Assembly (NCBI GenBank): GCA_963693365.1
Contig: CAVNZM010000001.1
Location: 3,798,907 to 3,862,906, forward strand
Source: Amoebidium appalachense
Taxonomy: Eukaryota > Protista > Ichthyosporea
DNA: 64,000 bases
Reading direction: 5' to 3'
The first letter of the stretch is position 1. Each line of letters starts with the position of its first letter. This document shows, one piece after another, positions 48,801 through 51,800 of the stretch. Made by a program: the position numbers and the translations under genes. The notes below the pieces were generated by a model. The model saw only the letters and a list, made by a program, of their open reading frames with translations, did not search any database and was not told where the DNA came from.

Positions 48801-51800
48801 GGACCCCCTGATGATGGGCCCTACTTATAGCGCAGATTTCTGCCTTTGCTTGGTCGTGCTGCCTGTTTTTCTCCCCACTCCTGACCCTTTCTCGGTGCAC
48901 TACCCGCCCACCCTCTAAAGTTTGTCAACCCCCCTCTTCCCCTCCCCCCTCCCTCCCCCCCCCCCCCCCCCCCCCCCCCCCTCCCCCCGGTGACCCATCC
49001 ATGTCCAAATGAAACAGTACCTGAGTTGGGGTTCGTCAATGGGGGGTCGGATGGGTCGCAAGTCGTGTACCGTGGATTACTTAAGCCCCCCGTGAGTATG
49101 GGCTCTGCTTGTTAGGCATACTCTTGTGTGTGTGGTTTGCATTCTGCCTTGTGTTGCCCATGCCTTGCAATCTAACACATTTATTGAAACCCCTTCCCTC
49201 CCCCGGTACAGGCAAACAAGCCCGAACGGCTGCGTCTTAAGCCAGGACCCAAGGCCGGCGCGAAGAACAGTCGCACGCAGCATGGCCGGCTGCCCCCCAA
49301 GTCCCCCGTGGGCAGAGGCCCATACGAGGTCAAGGCCAGGGGAGATGAGCAACAAGCCGTGCAGCCCCGGCTTAAGACGTCCCTGCAGCGCAGAAGAAGC
49401 AATAGCCTCAGTGTCCTGCCCCAGCTTAAGAACACGGCCGGCCTGCCCGTGCTGAGGATATGGGAGGAGGAGAGAGGGCAGGATAAGGTGTGTGTCGGTT
49501 TTTTCCTTCTTTCTTTCTTTTTTATTTTTCATTTTCTTATTTATTTATTTTTTTTTTGTGGAGAGGGGGGGGGGGGGGGGGGGGGGGGGGGGATTGAGCT
49601 TGAGTGTAGATGGGTAAATGCGGTTGTTGTATTTTGATATAGAATTCTGTGGGTTGTGTGCCTGTATGGTGTTGTGGAAGGAAGATGGGGGGGAGGGCAC
49701 GGGGGTAGGGAGGGGGAGGGGGGGAGCTCCTTCACAAATGACACTAATGTACACACCTCCCCCCCCCCTCCTCCCCCTTACCCGCACGCGCACACACACA
49801 TAACCCCTTTCCTTTGGTCCCCCCGCGCCCCCCCCCCACCCCGCACCCCCTGTCTCCTGGCCACCTGTTCTTCCGCTGACAGGTACTTTGGATGACTTGG
49901 GGGCCCGCTGAGGATGGGCTCTGCTTATCATGTGTACTCTTCTGTGTGCTCTGCATTGTGTTTCCATCATGGATGTGTGCTCCGGACTAAGCAACACTTT
50001 CTACTTCCCCCCCCCCCCCACTCTGCAGAACGTTTTACGCATTTCTCCCCTCGGAGAACTTGGTCGTTGGTGCGTTTTTGTCTGACATCTAACGACTCTG
50101 CAGGGTCCCCTGAGACTACTGACACTCTAACATTCCCTCCCCTCTCTTACTTCCCCCCCCCCCCCCTCCCCCCTTTCCCTCCTCCTTCCCCTCCCATTTT
50201 CTCTGCACACCCAACAGGTCTTAACCAGATCTGCACATCGTTAGTCACAATCTTCTCACATATATGAGAGAATGATCGTATTGGTACGATTTGTCTAATA
50301 TCTGACGATTCTGCAGCATCCCTAAGACCCCCTCCCCCTCCCCCTCCCCCCCCCCCCCCCCCCCCCCCCCCCCCTCTTCTCTCTCTCTCCTCCCCTCTCT
50401 CCCTCTCTCTCCCTCTCTCTCTCTCTCTCTCTCTCTCTCTCTCTCTCTCTCTCTCTCTCTCTCTCTCTCTCTCTCTCTCTCTCTCTCTCTCTCTCTCTCT
50501 CTCTTTCTTTTTCCTCCTTTTTTTTTTTTTTTTTTTTTTTTTTTTTTTTGGCGCCTGTTGTTTTTCTTGTCATTTGTTGTTCTGGTTGATTACCTGTAAT
50601 CTTCGCTTATTTATGTGTGTGTGTGTGTGTGTGTGTGTGTGTATGTTGTGCGGGGTTGCACATACCGGTGTCTACTTTTCTTCTTACTGTTTTTCTCTCC
50701 ACACACTTCATCTGTCCACTTCTGCATACCCCCTTTCATAGCTATAGACACACTTCACACATTGCGTTACGCGCACGCATGCACACACCGCTCTGTTGGC
50801 GACAGCTCCCTTGGAACCCATGCGGCATGTTACCCGCCGGCGTAACATAACTCGGACTATCGGTTTGGCTTTTTTCAAGCCCAAAGCAATGGGTGATACC
50901 ATATTTCCGGCTGACATCCGGGGGCATAGCTTTCCGTTCGAAGACGATAAAGTTCCGCCCTAGTAAGCGTGTTACTACCCTGCGGCGTGGGTCAAATCTC
51001 ATATTTTCCCCTCTGATTACGAATTCTGTGGCCTTCGGGACTTAATTCTTTTCAGCTGGTGTAGTATGTTAGCCAGGGAAGTATCGACTTAGGTATCGAC
51101 GGGGGAGCTTCCTAGAAGCCCCGTCTCCTGAGTTCCTATCTATATTTTTCTTGCTTCTGCTTACTGCTGCAACTTTAACCCCCGGCCTTTCCCACTGCCC
51201 TTGCCTGCATAAGCAACCCTGCTCGTCTCTGATCAAGACGGGTGACCTACTCATGTTCAAGTGAAACAGTATCTGAGTTGGGTTTCGTTAACGAGGGGAA
51301 TAGGTCGAAACTCGGGTACTGTGGATGACGTGGGCCCCCCCTGAGGATGGGCTCTGCTTATTATGCATACTCTTTATGTATGGCTTGCATTCTGCATCGT
51401 GTTATCCGTTTGTTCTTGTGTACTTCGTACTTTTTGACGCATTCAAACCCCCCCCCCCCCCCCCCTCCCCCCCCCCCCCCCATCTTCCCCTCTTTAGACA
51501 ATACCATTCTGCTGCCACGGCCAATCTGTACACACACGCATTCACACGTGCACAGAAATGAACACATGCACACACGCGTGGACACACACACACACACACA
51601 CACACACACACACACACACACACACACACACACACACACACACACACACACACACACACACACACACACACACACACACACACACACACACACGTACATA
51701 CATACACACCTCACTCACTCATCCTCTTTCCCTCCCTCCCTTCTCCCCCTCCTCCATGTCCCCCTTCCCCGCCCCGTTATTCCCCCCTCTCCCCCCCCTT

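Follow-up and report, generated by a model that had tools for sequence, protein, structure and literature searches.

A candidate split-core hammerhead ribozyme in a high-copy, C-run-associated eukaryotic repeat

Within a 64,000-nucleotide stretch of contig CAVNZM010000001.1 (positions 3,798,907 to 3,862,906 of the forward strand; hereafter the window, whose own numbering is used throughout), a dispersed repeat carries in its 3' region a structured RNA, followed here mainly in the copy at 51210-51360 on the + strand (the 51.2k RNA; other copies are likewise named by position). Judged by their letters, the conserved blocks of this RNA are the core of a hammerhead ribozyme: the triplet GUU at 51277-51279, GAAA at 51307-51310 and CUGAGGA at 51341-51347. 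The fold modelled around them is fairly probably that of a self-cleaving hammerhead with a split core, in which a four-way junction likely interrupts the chain between A9 and G10.1. An earlier sequence-only reading had proposed a structured RNA, possibly a ribozyme, on the + strand of a retroposon family; this holds, although the hammerhead core, stem I and the GUH triplet had been missed. Its statement that no known RNA family matched has to be given up, the blocks being those of the hammerhead in an arrangement that Rfam does not model.

A hammerhead core in non-circular order

The three blocks run in the order cleavage site, GAAA, CUGANGA (51279 < 51307 < 51341), the non-circular order S-G-C (SGC), rather than in any circular permutation of the S-C-G order of hammerhead types I, II and III. 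The core letters are intact in the 51.2k, 42.3k and 38.9k copies despite their differing stems III, and have decayed in four other copies. CUGANGA is present at 51341-51347, in the 42.3k and 38.9k copies and in three 3' fragments, with N7 varying between G and U, and H17 is U or C, never G, in all seven copies that can be compared. The NUH triplet between stems III and I is GUU or GUC in six of these seven and GAC in one decayed fragment, and the GAAA block comes with its A15.1-U16.1 pair (51307-51310 with U51278). GAAAC and the second block that had been singled out as most conserved coincide with the GAAA and CUGANGA of the hammerhead. Helices I, II and III flank the core in full in two copies; stem I is short, at 3-4 base pairs (bp), and three further copies have a mismatch at its first pair.

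A descriptor of the split layout matched two places in the window and nothing in 100 block-wise dinucleotide shuffles; since it was written from the window copies, this shows only that chance does not produce the layout. The proposed comparison with Rfam gave 0 hits over the 64 kb at the gathering level; in E-value mode its matches, all at chance level, included a sub-threshold Hammerhead_1 (E=1.8), which takes the GACCUA and UAGGUC strands discussed below as stem II. Other assignments were rejected: CUGAUCA in the loop of P1 fails as another core block, having C at G8, and U at C3 in the 42.3k copy, and the Pistol, twister, HDV-like and RNase P folds were dropped for want of matching motifs.

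Architecture of the RNA

Followed from its 5' end along the + strand, the 51.2k RNA opens with one strand of an outer helix, P0 (51210-51219, partner 51349-51360), and with the hairpin P1 (51221-51243), which stops directly before G10.1. The arms of this hairpin, GCUCGUCU and AGACGGGU, lie at 51221-51228 and 51236-51243 as had been proposed, with an energy of -9.1 kcal/mol. The 5' strand of stem II follows (51244-51249, G10.1 = 51244), which the sequence-only reading knew as its pseudoknot strand, and then the 5' strand of helix B (51250-51259, partner 51326-51334), which would brace the far ends of stems I and II. The bulged strand of a kink-turn-like loop (51260-51265: a 3-nucleotide bulge, GA and A, opposite G-GA at 51323-51325) leads into the 5' strand of stem III (51266-51278), which ends in G16.2-U16.1 and runs into the GUU triplet (51277-51279); by analogy with the hammerhead core, the cut is predicted between 51279 and 51280. 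The 5' strand of stem I (51280-51282, partner 51338-51340), which creates a second pseudoknot, is joined by a linker with a small hairpin (51283-51300) to the 3' strand of stem II (51301-51306, C11.1 = 51306). There follow GAAA with the 3' strand of stem III (51307-51322, G12 = 51307), the non-bulged side of the kink-turn-like loop with the 3' strand of helix B (51323-51334), the 3' strand of stem I with CUGAGGA (51338-51347, C3 = 51341, A9 = 51347) and, last, the 3' strand of P0 (51349-51360).

As first drawn for this copy, UAAGCA/UGCUUA, GACCUA/UAGGUC and CUCAUGU/ACGUGGG consist of standard pairs, and so does the long helix over 13 pairs; its fourteenth pair (U51279-A51309) is possible on paper, but its two bases are H17 and A14 of the core. 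Kink-turns follow a simple rule, a 3-nucleotide bulge and then tandem G.A/A.G pairs between two helices, and the bulge and GA/GA tandem between helix B and the 13-bp stem III match this pattern, from which a kinked fold would be expected. GA stands on the 5' strand of the loop in five of seven copies, counted by eye, and on the 3' strand in all seven, with the bulge register less clear in the 38.9k copy. Folding energy is unremarkable (z = -1.15) and is not unusual on either strand.

The choice of stem II decides whether the core is whole. Two pairings compete for the role, GACCUA with UAGGUC, whose first strand lies upstream, and GGCUC with GGUC, downstream of A9, which would give a plain SGC hammerhead. 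The former is Watson-Crick throughout and shows two-sided changes in two of its six pairs; the latter shows them in none of six, and two of its first four pairs are G-U. On these changes, an unbroken CUGANGA block with a stem II strand 0-2 nucleotides from A9 is probably not what the window RNA has, and we infer that stem II is GACCUA/UAGGUC with its 5' strand supplied from upstream. With that strand as stem II, A9 and G10.1, normally neighbours, come to lie about 100 nucleotides apart in the chain; the strand after A9 instead forms P0 with the 5' end of the RNA, and P1 leads out to G10.1. Further, the 5' strand of helix B follows that of stem II and its partner precedes the 3' strand of stem I, a position that gives helix B the role of the extra helix in SGC ribozymes.

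Covariation and sequence variants

Covariation was assessed on an eight-row MAFFT alignment. Two-sided changes occur in 16 of 53 pairs, compared with 9.2 +/- 2.4 in shuffles (3 of 500 as high), a background that related rows can exceed, and 77% of cells pair, compared with 30-42% for slid partners. Because the structure derives from one row and the 5' parts of two copies are misaligned, this is support rather than proof; the earlier claim that the pairs covary between copies stands above the shuffles but, on eight rows, short of demonstration. Compensatory changes are seen in each helix: I (3-4 bp), II (5-6 bp), III, B (two-sided in three of nine pairs), P0 (in the 40.4k and 38.9k copies) and P1. 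Stem I, for example, changes from GGG/CCC in the 51.2k copy to GGAG/CUCC in the 42.3k copy. The helix variants quoted for the 42.3k, 49.0k and 38.9k copies are present, as is the pseudoknot pairing of the 40.4k copy, although that copy has lost G12 and C3. Likewise, contigs of four public sequencing runs carry the two stem II variants 51248 T>C and 51302 A>G, unphased, at similar shares (3.7/3.1, 2.4/4.4, 4.2/4.1 and 12.7/6.3%).

The repeat family and its insertion target

A profile built from 12 window copies places the repeat at 15 sites in the window (14 at E<1e-5 and one at E=0.08) and at none in the reversed window, in agreement with the roughly 15 dispersed copies first counted. The copies share a 3' end followed by C-runs and have variable 5' ends; both the GAAA-side block and the cleavage-site block are present in only seven, the remainder being mostly 3' fragments. 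The longest (50790-51447, +, 5' end approximate) ends in a subfamily-variable tail (51361-51447) that stops at the common 3' end. The second copy with intact core and all helices belongs to another subfamily (42155-42427, -; H17 = 42355, G12 = 42323, C3 = 42289), and a divergent copy (38701-38984, -) keeps the core letters and a GUC triplet with a U.C mismatch at the first pair of stem I. More degraded are a copy with decayed core and 9-bp stem II (48989-49189, +), a copy with compensated P0 and upstream homology to the 51.2k copy (40170-40527, -), a 5'-truncated copy with mutated C3 (36648-36847, +) and a fragment that covers stem II up to the GAAA block and immediately precedes the 38.9k copy (39007-39098, -). 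In the copy at 12280-12545 (-), two C-runs and an A-run separate the GAAA block from the 3' part, and a short segment is duplicated.

The family is clearly abundant. On a 671-bp stretch of the repeat, four public runs gave 10,476, 2,916, 6,463 and 304 contigs, and the summed contig depth climbs about 20-fold from 50780 to the 3' region, neither measure being equal to copy number. Neighbouring copies lie head to tail at 48.8k/49.0k and 39.1k/38.9k, and contigs show 3'-to-5' joints over short C-runs; these resemble the partial tandems of pseudo-long terminal repeats, yet repeated insertion into one target explains them too.

The window is eukaryotic sequence rich in (CA)n and C-runs, and it is in such C-runs that the element, the 3' part of a 5'-truncated repeat of high copy number, is found. 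In element orientation, and with bounds chosen by the analyst, the 40 bases 5' of the copies are C-rich in 10 of 15 cases (one of these flanks being the 3' run of a neighbouring copy) and the 3' side in 14 of 15, against a background of 12%; none of 15 is G-rich. With C-runs at both ends of the element, they look like targets rather than tails, and the run at the 3' junction of the 51.2k copy (51448-51481, +) is a likely insertion target. The description of the family as C-tailed is correct for the 3' flanks but incomplete, given the 5' flanks. Five of the 15 copies begin near the element's own C-run preceding CUGANGA, which suggests microhomology with the insertion target. By analogy, C-rich flanks on one strand fit the strand-specific insertion into (C)n or (CA)n reported for the Chlamys group of Penelope-like elements (PMC8557442).

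The 51.2k copy sits on the sense strand of an intron (49488-51822, +) between in-phase exons, and the 49.9k copy is likewise in sense orientation within an intron of a + strand gene with in-phase exons. The 12.3k copy, also sense-oriented, immediately precedes the final exon of a Hippo/MST kinase gene on the - strand (about 12210-14770). Such sense-strand intronic copies probably reflect C-runs on the sense strands of introns.

Known hammerheads and Penelope-like elements

The closest described design is the type-SGC hammerhead (HRIMA-1 and its variants; Eckert et al. 2023, PMC10085705), known from metatranscriptome RNAs. Like the window RNA it has this block order and two core pseudoknots; its stems I and II are directly linked, and a further helix joins their other sides, in the place of helix B. 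It differs in that the CUGAnGA block is assumed to be uninterruptible, whereas P0 and P1 would split A9 from G10.1 in the window RNA; in its linker between stems I and II, typically 3 nucleotides as against about 18 with a hairpin here; and in the kink-turn-like loop, which of the two only the window RNA has. The setting differs too: almost none of the motifs of that study were found in genomes of known organisms (PMC10085705), whereas the window RNA belongs to a repeat in a eukaryotic genome. The canonical hammerheads of type I in Penelope-like elements and retrozymes (RF00163; PMC8557442, table S2; bioRxiv 10.64898/2026.07.22.740005) share the core letters, the GUU/GUC triplets and a place near the 3' end of a retroelement, but their blocks are circularly permuted, their core has no pseudoknots and their stem III is very short, as against the long stem III and three further helices of the window RNA.

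Canonical hammerheads are reported to be missing from Naiads and most Chlamys, although a core or "half core" matching no descriptor occurs in some Naiads (PMC8557442). Read by eye in the accessible part of the consensus supplement to that paper, the 3' ends of two octopus, three Acropora and two further Naiads have the order P0-P1-II-B-III-H-I-II'-GAAA-III'-B'-I'-CUGAUGA-P0' (the octopus and Acropora names assigned by header order, the header of the two further Naiads lying outside the passage). Their helix sequences are wholly different from those of the window element and their strand order is identical; in them as well, what follows CUGAUGA pairs with the upstream P0 strand, and the strand preceding GAAA is not its partner. 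Between III and B of the octopus Naiads there is likewise a GA/GA loop, oriented oppositely to the loop of the window element. In the same supplement, several Naiad ends from nematodes and spiders can be read as C-S-G hammerheads without a split, a type represented by just two metagenomic sequences in PMC10085705. The passages on green-algal Chlamys showed no split layout, a weak negative in that the motif search misses motifs divided by line ends. The literature searched, including passages of PMC3088659, PMC13725137 (which mentions hammerhead variants with additional helices) and PMC10162972, contains core variants and non-circular orders but no hammerhead split between A9 and G10.1 and none in Naiads; the supplements of PMC10085705 and subscription papers may bear on this.

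To the split design the window RNA adds C-run targeting, a reversed kink-turn-like loop, sense-strand intronic copies and a likely non-animal host. The repeat shows the 5' truncation and insertion into microsatellites typical of Naiads and Chlamys, with high copy number as in both and (C)n/(CA)n flanks as in Chlamys (PMC8557442), and its mobilising partner is most likely a Penelope-like element of this type. No GIY-YIG or reverse transcriptase frame is linked to it within the window, and its host is likely an ichthyosporean, a group not found in the text of PMC8557442. The open reading frame for reverse transcriptase that was to be sought 5' of the longest copy is absent from the approximately 420 bp of upstream repeat within the window, where Pfam and homolog searches found no protein and which may be non-coding; there the representatives search gave 5 matches, to unrelated repetitive proteins, and the Atlas search a best match of 0.80, unnamed.

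A Pfam scan of 126 chosen, mostly low-repeat frames among the 584 window frames of at least 60 amino acids found reverse transcriptase only in a separate long interspersed nuclear element (LINE) of the apurinic/apyrimidinic endonuclease (APE) type, at 32.6-35.3k. This decayed element (32600-35330, +), with fragments of its reverse transcriptase, was rejected as partner, no hammerhead block being seen in it; the stretch that follows (35215-35828) recurs at 9678-10264 (-) with 86% identity. Scanning by pattern gave 2 loci in viral contigs, including coding sequence of a phage-like contig, and 19 in metagenome contigs; none is a true relative, the best profile value over the 21 loci being E=0.017.

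Points against and alternative explanations

Several observations weigh against a split, self-cleaving hammerhead. Stem I of the 51.2k copy is only 3 bp long; the minimum-energy fold of this copy pairs 51221-51228 with 51345-51352 (8 bp), burying G8 and A9, and in its pseudoknot-free ensemble P1, B and the linker hairpin are of low probability. Not one of the 15 copies has its start at the predicted cut (profile position 77/78) or up to 10 positions from it, and the contig depth runs on there without a step. Helix B is disrupted by several variants in the contigs (51330 G>T at 15-23%, 51334 G>C at up to 3.5%). Although the 15 core positions carry no variant, this lacks significance, as only 13 of 121 positions vary at all (a hand calculation gives about 0.18). 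The covariation comes from only eight rows, and Pfam, homolog, representatives and Atlas searches found no partner reverse transcriptase or endonuclease. Finally, a plain-SGC stem II of at least four pairs can be drawn in five of six copies.

Some of these points are what would be expected if the fold derives from a hammerhead but need not cut, its task being to be bound or recognised by the reverse transcriptase of the element or by a host kink-turn protein. No copy beginning at the cut site and the competing fold of the 51.2k copy suit such a role, as does work in vitro on a Penelope-like element, in which mutants of the catalytic hammerhead did not lower insertion, uncut RNA was the main substrate and cleavage required added protein (PMC11167929). 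Nevertheless, in divergent subfamilies, as in Naiads from several phyla, the helices have been exchanged but all catalytic letters and the NUH rule persist, the pattern expected of selection on catalysis, and a fold without cutting appears unlikely. An ordinary SGC hammerhead, with stem II formed by GGCUC/GGUC after a 2-nucleotide insertion behind A9 and with GACCUA/UAGGUC as an alternative or inhibitory helix, draws on those same four or more pairs (seven in the 38.9k copy) and on the 1-2-nucleotide insertions known beside CUGAnGA (PMC10085705). Its lack of two-sided changes and its G-U pairs among the first four tell against it, and further, the pairing does not form in the 40.4k copy, in which P0 is the compensated helix, and cannot be drawn in the Naiad ends read by eye; it is accordingly held to be quite improbable.

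The kink-turn might itself be the point of the RNA, as in a selenocysteine insertion sequence (SECIS) or a box C/D RNA, with the hammerhead letters incidental. A GA/GA tandem is indeed conserved at the base of the 13-bp helix, some Naiads contain SECIS elements (PMC8557442), and Rfam gives a weak C/D-box snoRNA match (E=4.2). What makes this very improbable is that no Rfam SECIS family matches, that the helix runs into GUH and GAAA at a junction of three helices and has no AAR loop at its end, and that no selenoprotein frame is visible upstream; the features of a eukaryotic SECIS, a quartet with an AAR loop 11-12 bp away downstream of a frame with UGA recoding, are not found. Chance, or helices left by hairpin repair in an ordinary repeat resembling a short interspersed nuclear element, could explain a z of only -1.15, the decay of most copies and the few rows available. 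The descriptor result (2 against 0 in 100 shuffles), the two-sided changes and the same layout in unrelated Naiad sequences leave this explanation with a near-negligible probability.

A possible mechanism and its implications

In a split hammerhead of this kind, the four-way junction would rejoin A9 and G10.1, with P0, entered from A9, stacking on P1, the exit to G10.1. Helix B would tie the far ends of stems I and II together in place of the usual loop-loop contact, and the kink-turn would fold helix B back along stem III. The hammerhead so caged is predicted to cut its own RNA after U51279, releasing element RNA from longer host or tandem transcripts, maybe only with the help of protein, and the pairing of 51221-51228 with 51345-51352 could represent the ribozyme switched off. 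Since both products take part in each of P0, II, B and III, they would stay clamped after the cut and might be religated. Such clamping would fit the observation that no window copy starts at the cut, and also the tolerance of intact sense-strand copies in introns. A broader proposal, in which an active, kink-turn-braced split hammerhead is an ancient Naiad-type feature predating animals, and in which thousands of intact, clamped sense-intron copies in a unicellular holozoan nick or circularise transcripts of host and element, is tentative and would at present have to be called rather doubtful.

The implications extend beyond this repeat. Under the published rule (PMC10085705), the CUGAnGA block is inseparable from its stem II strand, and a natural, high-copy split of about 100 nucleotides would, if true, break that rule. 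Similarly, a split core might explain the unexplained "core" and "half core" hits in Naiads (PMC8557442), and descriptor searches would have missed a class of genomic ribozymes. The likely non-animal host would push the split design back before animals, and the sense-strand intronic copies raise the question of how host pre-mRNA tolerates them.

Other features of the window

A 1249-bp direct duplication of 99.6% identity (26317-27565 and 29493-30741), for which the frames scanned gave no Pfam hit, is possibly the pair of long terminal repeats of a young element or a tandem duplication. An exon of the Hippo/MST kinase is present. At 59750-60778 (-), an uninterrupted frame for glycerol-3-phosphate dehydrogenase stands within an otherwise intron-rich region. 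In a tree of 60 of 120 hits, its product groups at 100/97 support with proteins of Sphaeroforma and with others labelled CFRG, a label that denotes Creolimax; on this one gene tree the host is likely an ichthyosporean, and the ichthyosporean group lies within protist and bacterial homologs.

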